In this document: positions 810 through 56,222 of the stretch, piece by piece
Layout: each line of letters begins with the position of its first letter
How positions within the stretch are numbered: position 1 is the stretch's first letter
Source of the DNA: Minisyncoccota bacterium
GTDB taxonomy: Bacteria > Patescibacteriota > Minisyncoccia > Phycocordibacterales > Phycocordibacteraceae
Assembly (NCBI GenBank): GCA_017991635.1
Contig: JAGOQE010000001.1
Coordinates: 65,008-129,007 of the forward strand
Reading direction: 5' to 3'
DNA length: 64,000 nt
Notes under the pieces: generated by a model
Seen by the model: the letters and a program-made list of their open reading frames with translations, nothing else
What the model was told of the DNA's origin: nothing
Database searches by the model: none
Position numbers and translations under genes: made by a program

Positions 810-1580
810 ATGAACAAAGCACCCCTCTATATTCTCGCAGTTGGCATTCTCGTCGGTGCTGTTGGCGGATTAGTGTATTGGTACAAAACAAAGGCTCCTG
901 CAGTTGAAGCTCCTGTCGACACGGTTCTGGTACCAGGCGCAAAAGATGACTCAAGGACCATTTCTGAAGCAGGTCAGTATTTTAAAATTAAAGCGAGAGT
1001 CCCTGTAGAGTCCACGCTTGCTTCTACAGCAGGCACTGAAGCCTCAAATAAGGCCGTGGCGCTTATGGAAACCTCTATTGAGGCCCAAGTAGCAGAATTC
1101 AAAAAACAGGATATTTCTTGGCTTACAGACCGTCCCGAGAGCGAAAGCTATCCCCTTGAATTTGATGCGAATTACTCAATAACGGAGAACTCTCACCTTA
1201 TCTCCTATGATTTCCAGATATACCAGTTCGCTGGTGGCGCACATGGAGGAACCGTAGCGGAGACGTACACGTTTGATAAGAAAACCGGGAAGCGTGTTCA
1301 ACTCGCCGACCTATTCGTTTCAGGAAGTCCGTATCTTGAGCGAATAAGTGCGCACGCAAAAGCGCGCTTGCTTGCAACACTTGGTGAATACAAAGATGAG
1401 AAATGGATTACGGAGGGAACCACCCCAACGGAGAAGAATTTTCAGAGCTTCCTTGTCGATGGCGACAATCTCACGATTATCTTCGGACAGTACCAGGTTG
1501 GGCCGTATGTCCTTGGCATGCCTGAGATTCAAGCACCCCTCTCTACCCTCTCCGATATACTTAAGCCTGAGTATCGCTAG
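810..1580 (+). CDS. membrane-anchored DUF3298/DUF4163-like (RsiV/PdaC-like) protein
   Basis: N-terminal TM helix (LYILAVGILVGAVGGLVYWY); C-terminal FQIYQFAGGAHGGT...LTIIFGQYQVGPYVLG resembles DUF3298. Confidence 0.5.
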   Translation: MNKAPLYILAVGILVGAVGGLVYWYKTKAPAVEAPVDTVLVPGAKDDSRTISEAGQYFKIKARVPVESTLASTAGTEASNKAVALMETSIEAQVAEFKKQDISWLTDRPESESYPLEFDANYSITENSHLISYDFQIYQFAGGAHGGTVAETYTFDKKTGKRVQLADLFVSGSPYLERISAHAKARLLATLGEYKDEKWITEGTTPTEKNFQSFLVDGDNLTIIFGQYQVGPYVLGMPEIQAPLSTLSDILKPEYR

Positions 1581-51645: not shown

Positions 51646-52455
51646 ATGACACCAAATTTTGACAGCTTACACGCACACGCACTTACAGGAGCTGGCCTAA
51701 CGCAAGAACAGGCACACGTATACGAGCTTCTTTTGAAACGTGGTCCTCGCCAGGCAGGACAGCTTCCCCGTACGCTCGGACTCTCAAGACCTTATGTATA
51801 TAAATTGCTGTCTGAGCTTGAAGGATTGGGGCTTGTCACCAAGGAAGAACCTCCTGGCAAGCCGGCTCAGTTTGTTCCAGCTCACCCTTTCGCTATTCAA
51901 GAGCTTATTCGCAAGCGGCAATCTGAGCTTTCCGTCACTGACCAGACCATTAAAGCGGTAATGAGTTCTCTCATCTCTGACTACTCGACCTCCTCGCGAA
52001 CTCCCGGCGTACGCATTATTCCAGGAATTGAGGGTATACAAGAGCTCTATCAAGACATCCTCCAGGAAGGGAAACCTGTTTCTTTACTTCGCTCAGTACG
52101 AGACGACGACACACCAGAACTTCTTGAACTTGTTCTTGAACAAATAAAAAAGCAAGTCAAACGCGGCATTACAGCAAGAATTTTGAGTCCACTTCCAACT
52201 GACATATCGCTTCCTGCACTTTACGAGAGAGACAAGGAACGTTTAACTGCGCGAAAGACCATAGATAGAGAGCGTTTCACACTTCCTGCTCAAATTATTA
52301 TGTATGGTGATAAAACAGGAATTACCGCATACCAGGAAACACACATGACCACAATCATTGAGAACACTGCAATCACTGCAACGTTTCGTGCTGTTTTTGA
52401 AATACTATGGACAAGTGTTGGTGTTGATCCCTATGACACAAATACGAAAGCATGA
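51646..52455 (+). CDS. TrmB-family winged-helix transcriptional regulator
   Basis: LTQEQAHVYELLLKRGPRQAGQLPRTLGLSRPYVYKLLSELEGLGLVT. Confidence 0.55.
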   Translation: MTPNFDSLHAHALTGAGLTQEQAHVYELLLKRGPRQAGQLPRTLGLSRPYVYKLLSELEGLGLVTKEEPPGKPAQFVPAHPFAIQELIRKRQSELSVTDQTIKAVMSSLISDYSTSSRTPGVRIIPGIEGIQELYQDILQEGKPVSLLRSVRDDDTPELLELVLEQIKKQVKRGITARILSPLPTDISLPALYERDKERLTARKTIDRERFTLPAQIIMYGDKTGITAYQETHMTTIIENTAITATFRAVFEILWTSVGVDPYDTNTKA

Positions 52456-52462
52456 TTAATTA

Positions 52463-52505
52463 CATCGAACGACCCATAGCTCACGCGGGGTCGTTTTGCT
52501 TTATA
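52463..52505 (+). repeat. 43-bp direct repeat, copy 2
   Basis: Identical to 49749-49791. Confidence 0.8.
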
Positions 52506-52514
52506 CTGTCGAAG

Positions 52515-53312
52515 ATGGAAGGACTTCCCCGCAAAGAAAAAATGGTTTCAAGAAGTGAAACGTGGGTAGAACGCACTGAGAAACCTATCAGTAAAGACTT
52601 CTTTAGGTTGCAGCATGATTTTGCACTCACTCTTGCAAGCCAAGATGGCATTTCAAAAGCACGGTCGCTCAAGAGATTTGCTCCGTTTGTGTTTAAGAAC
52701 CTGTTTACACTCGACACTGATGCAGGCACATGGAAGAAGCTCCCTGGAGTCAGTCTTGATAGCGCTCTTGATACTGCGTACGAGAACTATCTGAAGAAAG
52801 TAGATACGGAGCCAGTTCCCTACAACGAAGGAACGCGTTTCGGGTGCTCAAGCTACACCTACGATGAAGACAAGAAAGCTGCATGGGTTCATTTTGTAAA
52901 TGCTGAATACGATGAAACAGGCCCTCTAGACCGTTCAAAAATTTCATTACGAAGACAGGAAGTCGCTGATGTAGTGCGTAGCTTGAAAGAACGGTACCCC
53001 GACGTGGAGACCATTAATGGAAATTCTTGGCTCTACAGCCTTGAAGCCTATAGAAGAATCTATCCTGAAGAGTACACAAGAACGCTAACGCCCGACCTGC
53101 GTAAGGTGGTGTGGCAACAAGGCACGCGTATGTGGGGACAATTTTTAACTAGTGAAGGAACGGTGAAAACGGAGCTTGCTGATGTGTTGCTCTCACGCGC
53201 AAAGACACTTCCTAAAGATGCGTTTTTGTTTAGTCTACTCACTGACCCACTCACCCCTCCTTTGAGAGTATCTGCACCAGCTGAAGTGTTTTGTAGGGAG
53301 TACGGAGTTTAG
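52515..53312 (+). CDS. hypothetical protein
   Basis: Start set at MEGLPRKEK, downstream of the repeat; the ORF track start at 52452 reads through the repeat. Confidence 0.45.
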   Translation: MEGLPRKEKMVSRSETWVERTEKPISKDFFRLQHDFALTLASQDGISKARSLKRFAPFVFKNLFTLDTDAGTWKKLPGVSLDSALDTAYENYLKKVDTEPVPYNEGTRFGCSSYTYDEDKKAAWVHFVNAEYDETGPLDRSKISLRRQEVADVVRSLKERYPDVETINGNSWLYSLEAYRRIYPEEYTRTLTPDLRKVVWQQGTRMWGQFLTSEGTVKTELADVLLSRAKTLPKDAFLFSLLTDPLTPPLRVSAPAEVFCREYGV

Positions 53313-53476
53313 TGCGGGATAGGAGAAGTTCCGCTTCTCTAACTCGTGACGACACAAGTGGAATTGGTGCCGGTTCCGGCTTTGACCAATTTCCAAGGAG
53401 TGAAACGACTATGAAAATGGAAACACCCTTGTGGTGCGATTCTCCACGGACAGTGCACAGGCACTGTCCTTATCCC
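53312..53476 (-). ncRNA. tRNA-acceptor-mimicking structured element E1 (about 165 nt)
   Basis: Minus strand begins TGCGGGATAA then 9-bp hairpin GGACAGTGC-CTGT-GCACTGTCC; ends hairpin GAGAAG-CGGAA-CTTCTC then CTATCCCGCA, matching both acceptor-stem strands of the adjacent tRNA-Gly(UCC); not foldable as a tRNA. Confidence 0.35.
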
Positions 53477-53515
53477 GCAAACAACAAAAGCCCCTTGTGG
53501 GGCCTTTGTTTCGTG

Positions 53516-53586
53516 TGCGGGATAGGAGAATCGAACTCCTGCTCACAGTTTGGAAAACTGTTGTTCTACCATTAAACTAATCCCGC
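53516..53586 (-). tRNA. tRNA-Gly (anticodon UCC)
   Basis: Revcomp GCGGGATTAGTTTAATGGTAGAACAACAGTTTTCCAAACTGTGAGCAGGAGTTCGATTCTCCTATCCCGCA; 7-bp acceptor, D-arm, anticodon loop TTTCCAA, T-loop TTCGATT; no encoded CCA. Confidence 0.8.
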
Positions 53587-53671
53587 GTGTTTCGGAGAAT
53601 ACCATACTTCACCCCATTTCGTCTAAGGGTCCTCTACTGACTTTTTCCCCACTCTCACGTACCATTCCCCT

Positions 53672-54913
53672 ATGAATGAACGATTCTCTGCCTACGCAGG
53701 TATGGGTGCTGCTCTCGTTGCAGTCGCGCTTATTGTGGTTATATTCTTTTCCCCGGCAAAGCCTGAGCCTATCGGACCTATTGAAGTTGCCACCCTGGAA
53801 ACCGTTTCAACTCCGAAGAACTTTTCTGACCAATTGGAAGGACTCATTCCTGAGTCATTCACAGCATCTTCAACATCATTTGAAGAACTGTTTGTTGAAC
53901 CTATCGTTAATCCAGGCAAAAAGCCCTCCCCAGCAAAGCCTGAGGCCAAGACAGCCCCTGAAGCGACAGCACCTGTACTTACCCCACCTACTGTCACAAC
54001 ACCGAGAGCTGAAGTCATTAAAGAAGAAGTTGTCCCAGTAGCAACACCAAAAACTCCAGAACCTGAGGAGGAAGAACCTGTTGCGGCGCTCTCAGTGCAA
54101 GACGCGAGTGTAAACATTCTCTGCTCTGCAAAGGACAAATCCCTGCCATCTGTTTCAGGAAGCGGTGTAATCATTGACTCAAGCGGTGTCATCATTACTG
54201 TTGCACACATTGCTCAGCTTTTTTTGCTTGAAGATTATCCCAAGGAAGACAATGTCACTTGCGCCATTCGCACAGGAAGTCCTGCCAAAAATGCTTATTC
54301 AGCAAAGCTCATATATATTTCTCAAAACTGGGTAAAAAATAATCCAAACACGCTCACTGTCACTAACCCTTCAGGCACCGGAGAATACGATGTTGCACTG
54401 CTTGTGATTACCGGCTCACTCACCAGCACTCCCCTGCCAAAATCCTTCCCTGCCGTACCCCTCACACACAAAGACCCGAAGAAAGAAGAGTCAGCGATTA
54501 TTGGAGCATATGGCGCGCAGACACTTTCTTCAAAAGAAGTGCGTGACTCTCTAAATGAAATTATGGTGGGAACAACCGTTAAGAAGCTCTTCACCTTTGG
54601 CGATCACACCTACGACCTCATTTCTTTTGGTGGGAACGAAGCTGCGCAGAGTGGCTCGTCTGGAGGTGGTGTCGTGAATCTCTCAGGTGAGGTTATTGCT
54701 ATCATCACCACAAGCACTATTAAAGGCGACTTTGCCACAAGAAACGTGAGCGGAATCACACCAAACTACATTAGGAGAATTTTCACTCAAGAGACCGGAA
54801 AGAATTTGGATAGCTACATCACAAGCGCATCCCCTGCATCCCTTGCGAGTGCTTTTGCTGAGGACGCTAAAGAGCTCGCTAATGTCATTATCCAGGTAAT
54901 TGAAAAAGACTAG
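53672..54913 (+). CDS. trypsin-like (S1) serine protease, membrane-anchored
   Basis: N-terminal TM; SGSGVIIDSSGVIITVAHIA (His) and GSSGGGVVNLSGEVIAIITT (Ser) motifs; Pro/Thr-rich linker. Confidence 0.7.
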   Translation: MNERFSAYAGMGAALVAVALIVVIFFSPAKPEPIGPIEVATLETVSTPKNFSDQLEGLIPESFTASSTSFEELFVEPIVNPGKKPSPAKPEAKTAPEATAPVLTPPTVTTPRAEVIKEEVVPVATPKTPEPEEEEPVAALSVQDASVNILCSAKDKSLPSVSGSGVIIDSSGVIITVAHIAQLFLLEDYPKEDNVTCAIRTGSPAKNAYSAKLIYISQNWVKNNPNTLTVTNPSGTGEYDVALLVITGSLTSTPLPKSFPAVPLTHKDPKKEESAIIGAYGAQTLSSKEVRDSLNEIMVGTTVKKLFTFGDHTYDLISFGGNEAAQSGSSGGGVVNLSGEVIAIITTSTIKGDFATRNVSGITPNYIRRIFTQETGKNLDSYITSASPASLASAFAEDAKELANVIIQVIEKD

Positions 54914-54930
54914 GTTTCCCTAGTCTTTTT
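54903..54930 (+). terminator. rho-independent terminator
   Basis: aaaaagactaggtttccctagtcttttt. Confidence 0.6.
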
Positions 54931-54951
54931 CAATCTCTCACATTTAGGTAG

Positions 54952-55022
54952 TCGGGGTGCAGAGAATTGAACTCTGTCATCATCCTCCCAAAGGATGCGT
55001 ACTACCGGTATACGACACCCCG
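54952..55022 (-). tRNA. tRNA-Pro (anticodon UGG)
   Basis: Revcomp CGGGGTGTCGTATACCGGTAGTACGCATCCTTTGGGAGGATGATGACAGAGTTCAATTCTCTGCACCCCGA; C1-G72 pair typical of tRNA-Pro; anticodon loop TTTGGGA. Confidence 0.7.
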
Positions 55023-55042
55023 GTTCAGGCATACTACCAGAT

Positions 55043-55438
55043 TTATAGAATTTGTGGGAGATGTACAACCAAGGACTCAAAATCCCGCTTTCGGAGCCAG
55101 ACCAAAACAGCATCTACCTGAATATCACCTTCAAAATCTATTGAGGCCGAATACCACTCAAGCGTCCTCCCCACCCTTCTAATCTTTGCCTCATGCAGGT
55201 TTGCTGACGGATCATACCTGTCCTTTACCTCCCCCTCTCTTGGCAGTTCGTTCACAAGGATCGTCTTTACTTCAACAGCGATAAGAACTCCCTGCTTCTT
55301 GGCCACAATATCTAGTTCACCCGTTTTTCGAGCTACGTTTCGCGCAACAATGGTGTATCCGTGCGCACGAAGCCAGTCAGAAGCAAGCGCTTCTCCCCTA
55401 TTTCCAATGTCTTTACGTGAATAATCGACAGGTTCCAC
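55043..55438 (-). CDS. YraN-family (UPF0102) endonuclease-like protein
   Basis: GEALASDWLRAHGYTIVARNVARKTGELDIVA...LIAVEVKT. Confidence 0.75.
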   Translation of the reverse strand: MEPVDYSRKDIGNRGEALASDWLRAHGYTIVARNVARKTGELDIVAKKQGVLIAVEVKTILVNELPREGEVKDRYDPSANLHEAKIRRVGRTLEWYSASIDFEGDIQVDAVLVWLRKRDFESLVVHLPQIL

Positions 55439-55596
55439 GGCTTTTACTATTGTGGCGTATTTACTAGGTATTTTACAGACAGAAGGTGTGTACTACCCAT
55501 AAAGACACGTCCTTTATCCCCACTACCCCCAGGGTTGTCCACAGTTATTCACACGTTGACCGAGAGGAGTTTTTGGGAGGATTGGCGGACAGGCAG

Positions 55597-55817
55597 GAGA
55601 GGATAGGGAGAAGTTCCCGATTTCTAACTCGCTACGCTCGTAACAAATCTAGGTCACGCATCGGTCACCCGATTTGTTCGTCGTCACTCACAAACCGCTC
55701 GACGCCGGGAAACGGTTTTGCTTGCTAGCAAAACAGCCGTTTCCCTTTCGCACCCCTCCGGGTATTCCGATGCATCATTCTCCACGGACAGTGCGCAGGC
55801 ACTGTCCTCTATCCGCA
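55597..55817 (-). ncRNA. tRNA-acceptor-mimicking structured element E2 (about 220 nt), homologous to E1
   Basis: Minus strand begins TGCGGATAGA then GGACAGTGC-CTGC-GCACTGTCC-GTGGAGAAT (as E1); ends ...GAGTTAGAAATCGGGAACTTCTCCCTATCC; termini match tRNA-Gly(GCC) acceptor strands. Confidence 0.35.
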
Positions 55818-55833
55818 CACGATTTTTAACGCA

Positions 55834-55857
55834 AAAGAGCGCTTTCGCGCTCTTTTG
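55834..55857. terminator. hairpin between tRNA-Gly(GCC) and E2
   Basis: aaaagagcgctttcgcgctctttt. Confidence 0.55.
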
Positions 55858-55867
55858 CTGAATCGTG

Positions 55868-55938
55868 TGCGGATAGGGAGAATCGAACTCCCGACTGGTC
55901 CTTGGCAAGGACCCGTTTTACCACTAAACCATATCCGC
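55868..55938 (-). tRNA. tRNA-Gly (anticodon GCC)
   Basis: Revcomp GCGGATATGGTTTAGTGGTAAAACGGGTCCTTGCCAAGGACCAGTCGGGAGTTCGATTCTCCCTATCCGCA; canonical cloverleaf. Confidence 0.8.
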
Positions 55939-55985
55939 TAACCGAGGCATCATAGCACAAACCATTATAATCTTTCCAGTGAATT

Positions 55986-56125
55986 GTGCCCCTCCCAGGA
56001 CCGCGATTACGCTTCTCGGTCATTACATGACCAGTACACCTTACGGGCAGTACTCGCTTCGCTTCATCCTGCGCTCGTAAGGTTTTCGAGTCCTGTACGC
56101 ACGCTCCCCGAGCGTGCTGAGGAGC
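55986..56125 (-). ncRNA. tRNA-acceptor-mimicking element E3 (about 140 nt)
   Basis: Minus strand begins GCTCCTCAG then hairpin CACGCTC-GGG-GAGCGTG; ends hairpin GACCG...CGGTC then CTGGGAGGGGCA; 5' GCTCCTC pairs fully (with G-U) with 3' GAGGGGC, matching the adjacent tRNA-Arg acceptor; the 3' 14 nt are identical to the tRNA-Arg 3' end. Confidence 0.3.
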
Positions 56126-56150
56126 ACATTAATGCGCTCCGCTTTTAATG

Positions 56151-56222
56151 TGCCCCTCCCAGGACTCGAACCTAGAATGACTGTTCCGAAGACAGTAGTG
56201 ATATCCATTTCACCAAAGGGGC
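56151..56222 (-). tRNA. tRNA-Arg (anticodon UCG)
   Basis: Revcomp GCCCCTTTGGTGAAATGGATATCACTACTGTCTTCGGAACAGTCATTCTAGGTTCGAGTCCTGGGAGGGGCA; anticodon loop CTTCGGA. Confidence 0.75.

Follow-up and report, generated by a model that had tools for sequence, protein, structure and literature searches.

A tRNA-linked family of structured elements carrying copies of tRNA 3' ends in Paceibacteria-type Patescibacteria

Three elements, E1, E2 and E3, found in the window (the whole stretch of 64,000 nucleotides analysed) of a candidate-phyla-radiation bacterium belong to a family of structured non-coding elements that is abundant in Paceibacteria-type Patescibacteria and uncatalogued. Their anatomy is that of a conserved multi-helix core clamped between forward and reverse-complement copies of the 3' end of the neighbouring tRNA. 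Our preferred, still tentative reading is that they are non-autonomous, intron-like selfish elements specialised on tRNA 3' ends, with arms that would be templated from the target and a core that would fold as a single strand.

Three elements and their tRNA genes

Each element follows a minus-strand tRNA gene, as the initial annotation had proposed, but the two are not contiguous: spacers of 36, 51 and 21 nt place E1, E2 and E3 21-51 nt downstream of their tRNAs. The 5' ends previously given for E1 and E2 were off by 1-3 nt. The cca gene adjoins the elements, as reported, and the synteny of its neighbourhood is conserved with or without them. The features are as follows.

53312-53479, minus: E1, type A with a degenerate core (model R1 33.4 bits, E 8.6e-07; folding far better than shuffled sequence, z = -6.2)
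53471-53479, minus: 5' arm of E1, TGCGGGATA
53448-53469, minus: hairpin P1a of E1
53437-53445, minus: T-stem-like strand of E1, with AATCG
53312-53327, minus: 3' arm of E1, exact 16-nt direct repeat (100% identity; repeat search, family D2)
53480-53515, minus: E1 spacer, 36 nt, with a terminator-like hairpin (A-tract, GGCCCC/GGGGC stem, T-tract)
53516-53586, minus: tRNA-Gly(UCC), neighbour and sequence donor of E1 (ARAGORN; Rfam tRNA 72.2 bits)
54952-55022, minus: tRNA-Pro(UGG), internal control, element-free in the window (ARAGORN and Rfam)
55597-55816, minus: E2, type A (model R1 43.9 bits, E 7.7e-10; fold z = -5.1 versus shuffled)
55809-55816, minus: 5' arm of E2, GCGGATAG
55786-55807, minus: P1a of E2
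about 55656-55783, minus: three-way-junction core of E2, including GUGACCGA
55613-55655, minus: P4 of E2
55601-55612, minus: truncated 3' arm of E2, TTCTCCCTATCC, matching the tRNA for 12 nt only and then diverging
55817-55867, minus: E2 spacer, 51 nt, with a terminator-like hairpin flanked by ACACGATT and AATCGTGT
55868-55938, minus: tRNA-Gly(GCC), neighbour and sequence donor of E2 (ARAGORN and Rfam)
55949-55978, minus: promoter-like site for tRNA-Gly(GCC) (TGGAAA, 18 nt, TG-n-TATGAT), inside the 46 nt after E3
55985-56128, minus: E3, type B (model R2 157.7 bits; consensus fold and covariation; fold z = -5.7 versus shuffled)
56119-56128, minus: 5' arm of E3, TGTGCTCCTC
56099-56118, minus: P1a of E3
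56085-56095, minus: T-stem-like strand of E3, with TCGAA
56039-56082, minus: P2 of E3
56017-56033, minus: P3 of E3
56003-56012, minus: P4 of E3
55985-56001, minus: 3' arm of E3, exact 17-nt direct repeat (100% identity; repeat search, family D9)
56129-56149, minus: E3 spacer, 21 nt, with a small hairpin (ATTAA...TTAAT) that prolongs pairing of the tRNA 3' end with the 5' arm
56151-56222, minus: tRNA-Arg(UCG), neighbour and sequence donor of E3 (ARAGORN and Rfam)

The 5' arms are those described earlier, GCGGGAT in E1, GCGGATA in E2 and GCTCCTC in E3, but the E3 arm does not copy the tRNA 5' strand (GCCCCTT) and instead complements the tRNA 3' strand (GCCCCTC in a sister strain), apart from one C-to-T change. 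The 3' acceptor strand and discriminator, attributed to all three elements, are present in E1 and E3: positions 53312-53327 repeat 53515-53530, from T-loop positions 59-60 of tRNA-Gly(UCC) through the discriminator and a C, and 55985-56001 repeat 56149-56165, spanning the T-stem 3' strand, acceptor 3' strand and discriminator of tRNA-Arg plus CA. In E2, by contrast, which matches for 12 nt, the final acceptor bases and the discriminator are missing. The spacer of E1 and its flanking copies form an imperfect long palindrome, and in E2 the flanks ACACGATT and AATCGTGT add 8 bp to the pairing between tRNA 3' end and 5' arm.

The conserved core noted for E1 and E2 was confirmed, with exact stretches of 31 nt and 25 nt in common (0 matches in 100 shuffles). 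An Rfam scan of E1, E2 and E3 returned no tRNA, tmRNA, group I intron or other family even at E <= 10, in agreement with the initial annotation. The 46 nt past E3 are homologous to the ~40-nt Arg-Gly spacer of relatives that carry no element, and thus mark the right-hand edge of the E3 insertion; in 22 species about 40 nt separate the Arg and Gly genes, versus 211 nt here, with the ancestral spacer intact after E3. No R1 or R2 match adjoins tRNA-Pro(UGG) in the covariance-model search of the window; the same gene bears elements in relatives.

Family size, tRNA linkage and turnover

Covariance models detected more than 100 family copies in Paceibacteria-type genomes and metagenomes; the family has no Rfam match and no description in the literature searched. 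Model R1 found about 34 copies in 80 syntenic Paceibacteria loci, E1 and E2 among the matches, and 83 in 80 metagenome loci; E1 scores 33 bits, compared with up to 144 bits in the best copies. Model R2 (syntenic and metagenome loci) matched E3 and 16 more sequences at E <= 0.01, five of them between 1e-6 and 6e-4, and also an E3 copy in sister strain L233. By blastn, relatives match E2 at 75-82% identity (L018 and L054 align over about 135 nt). Elements of the family are 100-220 nt long and lie about 10-100 nt downstream of a tRNA gene, whatever its specificity, on the tRNA strand.

Consistent tRNA adjacency, raised in the initial annotation together with matched acceptor arms, was largely borne out: 54 of 82 metagenome matches have a tRNA on the same strand no more than 120 nt upstream, across at least 17 specificities, and several matches that have no annotated upstream tRNA are at contig ends, follow visible tRNA 3' ends missed by ARAGORN or belong to a mirror arrangement. 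Viewed from the tRNA side, 45 of 47 tRNAs with an inverted 3'-end copy downstream bear a model match. Occupancy is low (36 of 258 orthologous tRNA genes, ~14%) and patchy among related species, the same site holds different elements in closely related genomes, and both tandem arrays and an internal-deletion derivative occur. Recent jumps are not evident, as the closest copies behind tRNAs of different specificity are at most about 89% identical and differ by compensated stem changes.

In the neighbourhoods of copies examined, no integrase, transposase or reverse transcriptase adjoins the elements and no neighbour gene is strongly recurrent; the viral contigs, phage records and plasmids searched hold no match to them. 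These observations bear on the idea that the elements are attL/attR scars of integrase-type islands or prophages deleted from tRNA 3' ends, which we disfavour as highly improbable. Direct repeats running from the T loop over the tRNA 3' end are indeed what classical tRNA att sites display, and the tRNA is sometimes separated from the distal repeat by small unknown genes. However, a conserved, covarying core in more than 100 copies is not expected of a scar, nor would a scar bear an inverted copy of the att core, and the examined copies show neither integrase remnants nor similarity to phage and plasmid records.

Arms, clamp and core

The 3' arm consists of the tRNA T loop (positions 55-59), the T-stem and acceptor 3' strands, the discriminator and one or two genomic bases; across copies, the repeat starts at T-loop position 59 and extends 0-38 nt past the tRNA end (38 nt in L028). 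Reverse-complemented, the same stretch with its T loop makes up the 5' arm, which therefore resembles the tRNA 5' acceptor strand. Across the spacer this arm can pair with the tRNA's own 3' end, giving a long palindrome that continues past the discriminator for 20-21 bp in L120 and L145 and for 8 bp in E2. The 12-nt T-stem and acceptor 3' strand is identical to that of the neighbouring tRNA in about 47 of 85 copies, and the sequence beside the 5' arm (TCGAA, TCGGA or TTGAA) follows the T-loop variant of the tRNA. At G-U pairs and mismatches of the tRNA, the 5' arm forms Watson-Crick pairs with the 3' strand, and the complement tracks the genomic bases after position 73, not CCA.

The proposal that the two ends pair as the acceptor stem holds for the pairing itself, but the helix goes further: the clamp pairs both the discriminator and the next (+1) base in 11 of 18 reliable copies, versus 18 of 337 real tRNAs. 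Because its discriminator is paired, the clamp is unlike a true acceptor-stem mimic, which would leave this base free. Among 85 copies, only 22 have an intact acceptor part on both arms of the clamp, 23 have it on the 5' arm alone, 29 on the 3' arm alone and 11 on neither; the sister-strain copy of E3 has lost the 3' acceptor part, as has E2. Old copies such as L177 (GGAGGCG/CGCCTCC) and L130 hold the clamp together by compensatory change away from tRNA identity. What had been described as a terminal hairpin in E1 and E2 is better explained by long-range GGAGAA/TTCTCC pairing (a copy of the T stem) plus an optional hairpin, P4. Acceptor-stem mimicry is thus real, and looks like a footprint or by-product of the origin of the element rather than a feature for recognition by RNase P, RNase Z or the CCA enzyme.

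This anatomy also bears on decayed tandem tRNA duplicates, in which an insertion into the T loop would have been followed by loss of the D and anticodon arms, leaving the duplicate's own acceptor and T stems as the clamp. Rare mirror-image copies on metagenome contigs (L130, L147, L164 and L191), in which the core is attached to an exact copy of tRNA positions 1-53, sometimes with upstream flank, and an intact tRNA comes next, are of the kind that such an origin would leave, as are duplicated stretches reaching up to 38 nt beyond the tRNA end. Nevertheless, we consider it improbable, and as originally formulated it is unsupported, the 5' arm being the reverse complement of the 3' end, T loop included, and not derived from the 5' half. 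It is the T-loop complement (AATCGAA), not the T loop, that stands beside the T-stem 5' strand; the 5' arm extends its pairing to the discriminator and the +1 base, and it restores regular pairs where the tRNA has G-U pairs or mismatches; P1a, which would stand in for the D and anticodon arms, carries a conserved loop of its own, common to elements of different tRNAs; and the same cores recur behind at least 17 tRNA types.

Cores are of two types, A in E1 and E2 and B in E3, with P1a and P4 as optional hairpins. In type A, 96.5% of cells are paired, 27 of 27 pairs have changed on both sides and the covariation score is 0.48 (controls: shuffles 0.14, slid partners no more than 0.08); 79 of 85 copies share one fixed G-U pair. 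The type B core is 93.8% paired, with double changes in 41 of 50 pairs, and junction bases are conserved in the cores. Two loop types trade places between P2 and P3 (30 copies versus 22), two of a kind occurring in one copy only. Covariation is thus very strong in both cores, and lends good support to a putative folded-RNA role of the core.

It is accordingly quite possible, if less probable than the reading we prefer, that the family is a host small RNA or cis-acting module, transcribed with the tRNA or by read-through from it, whose core would bind a protein or ligand or act as a ribozyme. The tRNA 3' end, the antisense 5' arm and the 3' arm might then work together as a switch by strand exchange, or as a processing signal, and so influence the upstream tRNA in its maturation, stability or termination, or the product might be a stable RNA with tRNA-like ends. 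Beyond the covariation, the fixed G-U pair and the conserved junction bases, the loop swap suggests a tertiary contact or two binding sites. Orthologous copies of the E2 and E3 types retain their structure at about 75% identity, although their flanks can no longer be aligned; when E3 is compared with its copy in a strain whose cca is 96% identical, every stem change is matched by a compensating one, also in the spacer hairpin, which is swapped for ATAATA...TATTAT. The compensated clamps of L177 and L130, the invariable placement on the tRNA strand and the terminator-free gap between tRNA and element in about half of the copies, E3 included, point the same way. Against a host function stand the patchy ~14% occupancy, degenerate copies such as E1, the poor minihelix mimicry of a clamp that pairs the discriminator and often loses its acceptor part, and the lack of a plausible shared downstream gene to regulate. 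So do terminator-like hairpins, found directly upstream of the element in 37 of 76 spacers, E1 and E2 included, with no room for a promoter, which argue against routine transcription of those copies. The more specific notion of small RNAs matured as minihelices by RNase P, RNase Z and the CCA enzyme is weakened by the paired discriminator, the 22 of 85 intact clamps, the terminators and the synteny of cca, even though covariation supports a folded-RNA role of the core.

Origin and persistence of the elements

Some support was thus found for each of the three options in the initial annotation, and none was fully right; a tRNA-targeting mobile or repeat element fits best, given the range of tRNA specificities, presence and absence at orthologous sites, tandem and deletion forms, and arms that always correspond to the neighbouring tRNA. 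The unit would be an insertion gained and lost at tRNA 3' ends, targeting the universal T arm and 3' end of tRNA genes. Its arms would be made on arrival, with DNA or primary transcript of the target gene, not mature tRNA, as the template, and their acceptor parts would decay afterwards. Persistence or spread would depend on folding as a single strand, most likely as RNA read through from the tRNA promoter, and selection would therefore retain the core and the T-stem portion of the clamp. Insertion at tRNA 3' ends, templated arms and a selected fold would together make it a small, non-autonomous, intron-like selfish element.

Several observations weigh against this selfish-element reading. It offers no account of how each new tRNA would come to dictate both arms; there is no mobilising enzyme near the copies examined and no sign of recent jumps; and the fold kept in diverged orthologues fits function in place at least as well as selfishness. 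The terminator-like hairpins of 37 of 76 spacers, which make routine transcription of those copies doubtful, likewise count against it. GCGAAGC is a very stable DNA mini-hairpin, and some hairpin tips contain this motif, the tips not being the usual GNRA or UNCG RNA loops; non-standard pairs outside two fixed columns are G-U in 36 cases, A-C in 19 and others in 58, so that G-U does not dominate. Both features count against a selfish RNA.

A further reading, which we regard as unlikely, is a miniature integrative cassette that recombines as folded single-stranded DNA. In its free form, the 5' arm and the tRNA-3'-end copy would form a hairpin resembling the double-stranded 3' half of the tRNA gene, on which a recombinase acting in trans would carry out a single-strand exchange at the T loop. 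Replication would then leave, in this order, the tRNA, a hairpin loop (the spacer, in many cases a replacement terminator), the 5' arm, the remainder of the circle (the core) and the old tRNA 3' end. However, no candidate recombinase lies near any copy examined, and viral contigs, phage records and plasmids yielded no match. A jump to a new tRNA type would impose a foreign 3' end, and the spread over at least 17 specificities is therefore unaccounted for. Compensated evolution of integrated orthologues is unexpected for inert DNA, and a core of such elaboration, loop swap included, would be atypical of a DNA recombination site. Yet such a cassette predicts the observed order of parts exactly, as well as the near-perfect palindromes; tandem arrays and genes situated between a tRNA and its structured part would also follow from it, as would decay of the old 3' arm where the spacer holds a terminator. 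It requires no transcription, and is consistent with the GCGAAGC-type loops and with folding specific to the tRNA-sense strand, which GC skew marks here as the lagging-strand template. Its logic of recombination through a folded strand would be that of integron attC sites and of the CTX phage.

Structured elements behind tRNA genes

Three of the four tRNA genes in the window, which is unusually rich in this respect, are followed by a structured element: E1 lies behind tRNA-Gly-UCC, E2 behind tRNA-Gly-GCC and E3 behind tRNA-Arg-UCG.

53516–53586, minus strand: tRNA-Gly-UCC
54952–55022, minus strand: tRNA-Pro-UGG
55868–55938, minus strand: tRNA-Gly-GCC
56151–56222, minus strand: tRNA-Arg-UCG

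Spacers of 36 nt (E1), 51 nt (E2) and 21 nt (E3) separate tRNA and element, those of E1 and E2 forming a terminator-like hairpin. The 3′ end of tRNA-Gly-UCC is repeated exactly over 16 nt at the end of E1, and that of tRNA-Arg-UCG over 17 nt at the end of E3; both repeats start at the end of the T loop and stop 1–2 nt past the discriminator. E2 has 12 nt in common with its own tRNA (TTCTCCCTATCC) and diverges beyond. The exact cores common to E1 and E2 are not expected by chance, and all three elements fold far better than shuffled controls (z = −6.2, −5.1 and −5.7). The initial annotation's observation of structured elements behind tRNAs stands, but its 3′ end for E2 and its account of a ‘terminal hairpin’ required correction. 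It was also right about what the elements are not: ARAGORN and RF00005 return only the four true tRNAs, with none on the elements at E ≤ 10; neither ARAGORN nor Rfam calls a tmRNA anywhere in the window; and, as regards group I introns (P3–P9 catalytic core, RF00028), E1–E3 and their well-conserved relatives give no Rfam match at E ≤ 10 and are located outside the mature tRNA. Across all families of Rfam 15, including self-cleaving ribozymes and riboswitches, nothing above chance falls on E1–E3 or these relatives, the sole weak matches (E 0.3–0.74, ~17–22 bits, far below gathering scores) being on spacers or arm edges.

The CCA-adding enzyme of the window is ~80% identical to proteins of Parcubacteria/Paceibacteria-type genomes of the candidate phyla radiation, and 80 syntenic loci, one genome per species, were fetched with the cca gene as anchor. 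The gene order cca, tRNA-Arg, tRNA-Gly(GCC), tRNA-Pro, tRNA-Gly(UCC) is kept across these loci with very variable spacings; the adjacency of cca, once read as a functional hint, is simply conserved synteny. The distance from tRNA-Gly(GCC) to tRNA-Pro ranges from ~160 nt to >3 kb in relatives, which suggests that the gene for a predicted endonuclease of the UPF0102/YraN family between E2 and tRNA-Pro in the window (55043–55438, minus strand) is variably present at the locus. On the other side of the cluster, a convergent 286-aa open reading frame without a Pfam match (52452–53312, plus strand) reaches the first base of the E1 3′ arm with its stop codon (53310–53312); it is not syntenic in relatives and has one distant match only. 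The tRNA-Gly genes of the window (53515–53586 and 55867–55938) and of relatives have discriminator A73, the usual bacterial tRNA-Gly discriminator being U73. The tRNA genes here do not encode CCA and are typically followed by C or CA, a partial CCA-like end; a full CCA occurs in a minority of relatives.

A simple scan found the last ≥12 nt of a tRNA (typically 16–17) recurring downstream, mostly within 80–320 nt, in 33 cases, three of them from near-identical strain contigs. Covariance model R1, built from nine elements with a consistent fold and representing the core of E1 and E2 (type A), matches ~34 copies in the syntenic loci, E2 (43.9 bits) and E1 (33.4 bits) among them, and 83 further copies on 80 metagenome contigs retrieved by a junction-sequence pattern. 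The exact E1/E2 hairpin-core pattern had no match in reference genomes or metagenomes because it was too specific. Model R2, for the second core type as defined by E3 (type B; 157.7 bits for E3), finds copies at tRNA-Arg in relatives and behind tRNA-Glu, -Ser, -Leu and -Arg in metagenomes; it matches type-A copies weakly, and modules are common to both types. Occupied tRNA genes number 36 of 258 (14%) in the species-level sample. A third, unrelated-looking element type of ~125 nt (CAGGAGACCGTCAG...AATTCTCTACCCCAAGGGTACTTGGAA...), bounded by a tRNA-Pro 3′-end repeat, was seen at two loci of relatives (L018, 2760–3410, minus strand; L047, downstream of tRNA-Pro at 1297–1370, minus strand).

Of 82 metagenome hits, which were not chosen by locus, 54 have a tRNA on the same strand no more than 120 nt upstream, and the tRNAs concerned have at least 17 specificities. 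Several hits without an annotated upstream tRNA are at contig ends, follow visible tRNA 3′ ends missed by ARAGORN or belong to a mirror arrangement; a few remain unexplained. Conversely, an inverted copy (≥9 nt) of a tRNA's own 3′ end is found within 160 nt downstream of 47 of 380 tRNAs, 45 of which coincide with model matches. We propose the name ‘tRNA-tail clamp elements’ for a family defined by an R1 or R2 core inside a helix of the neighbouring tRNA's T-stem 3′ strand and its complement, downstream of that tRNA and co-oriented with it; E1–E3 each have both the core match and arms matching their neighbours.

Some of the surroundings of these elements are observations in their own right. Clear tRNA 3′ halves (for example GGGGGTTCGATTCCCCCCATCTCCA) that ARAGORN does not call stand upstream of elements in L132, L150, L159 (near 8900) and L180 (near 8660), and may belong to intron-containing tRNA-Asn or tRNA-Asp genes such as those described in PMC13011429. 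In the mirror arrangement, exact tRNA positions 1–53, sometimes with upstream flank, are joined to a type-A core, after which come, in order, an antisense fragment of the T arm, a spacer and the intact tRNA:

L130, 560–930, plus strand: mirror arrangement
L164, 6790–7150, minus strand: mirror arrangement
L191, 100–460, minus strand: mirror arrangement
L147, 1–330, plus strand: mirror arrangement

At L130 and L164 the same tRNA has elements on both sides. Separately, the leader and trailer of a tRNA-Ser(GCU) (L152, 6575–6700, plus strand) are perfectly complementary over 14 nt (AAAGAATTCACTGC ... GCAGTGAATTCTTT), a pairing that lengthens the acceptor stem like an rRNA-type processing stem.

No similarity to the elements was found in phage or plasmid records; 27 pattern matches in viral contigs were all due to chance, with none confirmed by model; and a full-text literature search, with most subscription journals outside its coverage, yielded no description and turned up only group I introns of Patescibacteria tRNAs. 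In view of these results and the lack of an Rfam family, the elements are rated new.

Arms, core and folded strand

The two ends of each element pair as a clamp round the core. The 3′ arm is a copy of the neighbouring tRNA gene that begins at T-loop position 55–59, takes in the 3′ strands of the T stem and acceptor stem and the discriminator, and ends 1–2 genomic bases later, or in some copies up to 38 nt further on. The 5′ arm is the reverse complement of the same stretch, as four observations establish. It is followed by a T-loop complement that tracks the tRNA variant (TCGAA with TTCGA, TCGGA with TCCGA, TTGAA with TTCAA). Its pairing takes in the discriminator (T facing A73 or C facing G73) as well as the base after it; both pairs occur in 5 of 12 reliable type-A copies and in every one of the 6 type-B seed copies, compared with 18 of 337 real tRNAs. 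Where the tRNA itself has a G-U pair or a mismatch, the 5′ arm is the Watson–Crick complement of the 3′ strand (window tRNA-Arg position 7; position 2 of a tRNA-Glu, L148; an initiator-type 1:72 mismatch, L154). Finally, it matches the genomic bases after position 73, not CCA, for which reason a retrovirus-like primer-binding site was rejected.

That the element ends mimic the acceptor stem of their own tRNA, as first noticed, is real, and is best read as a footprint: both arms would originate from the neighbouring tRNA gene's 3′ end, either as DNA or as primary transcript. The idea built on it, that the ends serve as handles for RNase P, RNase Z and the CCA-adding enzyme, has lost ground. A minihelix substrate of RNase P or the CCA-adding enzyme would have a 7-bp acceptor helix stacked on the T stem and leave the discriminator unpaired; 8 of 12 type-A and all 6 type-B seed copies pair it, and acceptor halves are intact in both arms in only 22 of 85 copies (5′ arm only, 23; 3′ arm only, 29; neither, 11); the T-stem part of the clamp is nearly universal. 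On this reading only the inner part of the arms is maintained, which weakens the handle idea. Copies with an intact 5′ arm only tend to have terminator-type spacers, and those with an intact 3′ arm only tend to have short ones.

Together, tRNA 3′ end, spacer and 5′ arm make up a long near-perfect palindrome, which past the discriminator extends for 20–21 bp in two other copies (L120 and L145) and for 8 bp in E2. Such palindromes, and the order of the parts, are what a folded-single-stranded-DNA integration cassette predicts, and upstream terminators and DNA-like loops fit it too; however, no recombinase has been found, and integrated copies evolve with compensation, so that we regard this explanation as unlikely, if serious. 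Of the remaining hairpins, P1a is optional, takes the position that the D and anticodon arms would have and carries a conserved loop of its own, and P4, also optional, interrupts the 3′ strand close to the T-loop remnant. The P1a stem of E1 (ACAGT/ACTGT) equals the tRNA-Gly-UCC anticodon stem; an anticodon-arm relic was nevertheless rejected, as this hairpin is also found in E2, whose neighbour is tRNA-Gly-GCC, and other copies mismatch their tRNAs. Related tips GAGCGAAGCGA and GAGCGACGGCGAG cap many hairpins within the elements and would form tandem G-A pairs on a 2-bp stem with a GAA or GACG loop. A short motif, ACGAAG(Y)GAG or CGAGC-NNN-GCGAG, recurs just downstream of tRNAs with or without elements at many loci (for example window 56129–56149 and the spacers of L054, L039 and L008).

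The type-A core forms a three-way junction, and the bases that join its helices are conserved (AAG; GCC-GGAG...CGAG-GC; GGGGUCGCGG...CYGUGACCGA). Its covariation, like that of type B, is far above both kinds of control.

Table. Pairing and covariation in the two core types
Standard pairs, share of cells: type A, 96.5% (86 copies); type B, 93.8% (13 copies)
Pairs changed on both sides: type A, 27 of 27; type B, 41 of 50
Covariation score: type A, 0.48; type B, 0.47
Covariation score, shuffles: type A, 0.14; type B, 0.14
Covariation score, slid partners: type A, 0.04–0.08; type B, 0.05–0.08

The same G-U pair is present in 79 of 85 distinct type-A copies. G-U pairs outnumber A-C pairs by 155 to 19, or by 36 to 19 when two fixed columns are left out, which identifies the tRNA-sense strand as the one that folds. 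In 52 of 86 copies a single C-AGCA-G loop is combined with a single GCGACGGC-type loop, in the order P2/P3 in 30 and P3/P2 in 22, and two of a kind occur in one copy only; this pairing-off is the signature of two cooperating hairpin tips. A hammerhead-like core (CUGAGG...GAAA) seen in some copies was rejected, because it is not conserved and has no Rfam match.

Occupancy, decay and possible origins

In their occurrence at tRNA genes the elements behave like insertions, the outer arms of which decay. In 22 species, the spacer between tRNA-Arg and tRNA-Gly is ~40 nt long and contains the tRNA-Gly promoter; in the window, a homologous stretch of 46 nt directly follows E3. In three closely related genomes the occupant of the tRNA-Pro site varies (different elements, a deletion derivative, or a tandem pair), and the same ancestral flank follows in all three; on one metagenome contig a tRNA-Leu is followed by three tandem copies. 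Decayed duplicates of tRNA genes fit poorly and are very improbable as an explanation.

E3 is present at the same site in a strain whose cca is 96% identical. Its 5′ arm there is a perfect complement, GCCCCTC, so that the GCTCCTC of the window reflects a single recent C-to-T change. The two copies do not differ in P1a, the junctions and P4; all their differences in the spacer hairpin, P2 and P3 are compensated; and the sister strain has lost the acceptor part of the 3′ arm. Orthologous copies conserved in place, together with the swap of loops between P2 and P3, speak for a host RNA or cis-acting switch, whereas patchiness, decay and upstream terminators speak against it; we consider this second serious rival possible but somewhat doubtful. 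The most similar copies at different tRNAs are at most ~89% identical and differ by compensated changes, so no recent jumps are seen.

Large inserts between tRNA-Arg and tRNA-Gly in relatives were rejected as autonomous forms: they carry ordinary or unknown genes (ornithine/DAP decarboxylase, permease, TrmB-type regulator, unknowns) and no recombinase. Among 503 clustered open reading frames of the 80 metagenome loci, no gene cluster occurs in more than five loci, and the idea of a recurrent neighbour gene was rejected. In some genomes but not in others, the spaces between tRNA genes are occupied by a family of ~227-aa proteins (21 of 80 syntenic and 5 of 80 metagenome loci), which might be regulators or homing endonucleases of the free-standing kind; examples in relatives are:

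L044, 5122–5805, minus strand: ~227-aa family member
L078, 3426–4112, minus strand: ~227-aa family member
L121, 5028–5732, plus strand: ~227-aa family member
L116, 841–1512, minus strand: ~227-aa family member
L155, 7015–7704, minus strand: ~227-aa family member

Our tentative preference is for a non-autonomous, intron-like selfish element specialized on tRNA 3′ ends, the core of which must fold single-stranded to persist or spread. How one core family came by perfectly matched sense and antisense arms for at least 17 different tRNAs is explained by none of the models. A bolder proposal, and a rather improbable one, takes two forms. A mobile, possibly catalytic, structured RNA would home to the universal T arm and 3′ end of any tRNA gene and on arrival gain sense and antisense copies of the last 16–21 nt of its target; we know of no precedent for such a target-templated clamp. 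Otherwise, the tRNA 3′ end, the antisense arm, a decoy arm and the aptamer-like three-way junction could together control maturation of the upstream tRNA, a three-strand switch equally unprecedented to our knowledge.

Whichever the origin, this is a well-supported structured nucleic-acid family with more than 100 copies in two core types, and tiny Patescibacteria genomes tolerate dozens of its elements. Its clamp is re-written for each tRNA, which poses the puzzle of how a 150-nt non-coding unit gains both strands of its target's 3′ end. An answer could reveal a new insertion or recombination chemistry aimed at the T arm, which has been called the most conserved sequence in biology, a new ribozyme or RNA–protein complex, or the first RNA switch on tRNA maturation. 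In practical terms, annotation and assembly of candidate phyla radiation genomes can be led astray by the pseudo-tRNA ends and long palindromes that the elements create.

Comparison with known systems

Each of the nearest analogues has one or two features in common with the elements and fails at least one testable defining feature. With P4-type islands and integrase-less att derivatives they share a direct repeat with its start in the T loop, by which the tRNA 3′ end is restored or duplicated; such a repeat flanks the insert in E1 (16 nt), E3 (17 nt) and the 33 scan cases. As with other tRNA-targeting integrative elements, successive elements stack at one tRNA and presence varies between relatives. 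However, they are only 100–220 nt long, add an inverted copy of the att core and a conserved covarying core, and use every kind of tRNA rather than one cognate site. A search for tyrosine or serine recombinases in or beside occupied sites found no integrase domain, the open reading frames being ordinary or unknown. Ordinary att scars fit poorly and are scarcely credible.

Integron attC sites are defined by R″/R′ core sites (RYYYAAC ... GTTRRRY), the IntI integrase and attI. Like attC cassettes and CTX-phage-type folded-single-stranded-DNA elements, the present elements have imperfect inverted repeats that give a strand-specific hairpin, conserve structure above sequence and form arrays, and the order of parts predicted after single-strand integration is the one observed. 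By contrast, no link to IntI or Xer and no GTTRRRY-type core site was found: by inspection the arms are tRNA-derived (for example GGAGAA...TTCTCC), and no integrase was found in the loci examined. The target here is the 3′ half of a tRNA gene, and a conserved multi-helix junction, not a variable spacer, lies between the arms.

Group I introns in Patescibacteria tRNA genes are likewise structured, apparently selfish, tRNA-tied RNAs of the same phylum with a patchy distribution, mostly without an endonuclease gene of their own (PMC13011429). Those introns are self-splicing, with a group I core, and interrupt the anticodon loop at position 35/36 (PMC13011429), whereas the elements here are external to the mature tRNA, are bordered by copies of its 3′ end and give no group I match. 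Minihelix RNAs (the tRNA-like domain of tmRNA, mascRNA, viral 3′ tRNA-like structures and YrlA) share the terminal helix of acceptor on T stem; unlike these, our elements have no T loop or elbow, usually pair the discriminator and frequently lose the acceptor half, and their helix copies a particular neighbouring tRNA rather than a generic tRNA shape.

MITEs and IS200/IS605 hairpin derivatives, finally, are also small, non-coding and multi-copy, with terminal inverted repeats, strong structure and single-strand-specific features. Hairpin elements of the IS200/IS605 type insert 3′ of a fixed tetra- or pentanucleotide and have a conserved cleavage site at the right end. Here, T-loop TYCRA invariably precedes the left junction, and in many copies GACCGA is the last sequence ahead of tRNA position 59; with P4 present, the terminal bases vary and the right end lacks a conserved cleavage tetranucleotide. 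No transposase was found, and no TnpA was seen. The duplicated stretch, which in MITEs has a fixed length, here has a left edge fixed in the T loop and a right edge 0–38 nt past the tRNA end, and the inverted arms, rather than being specific to the element as in MITEs, change with each tRNA and are copied from the target.
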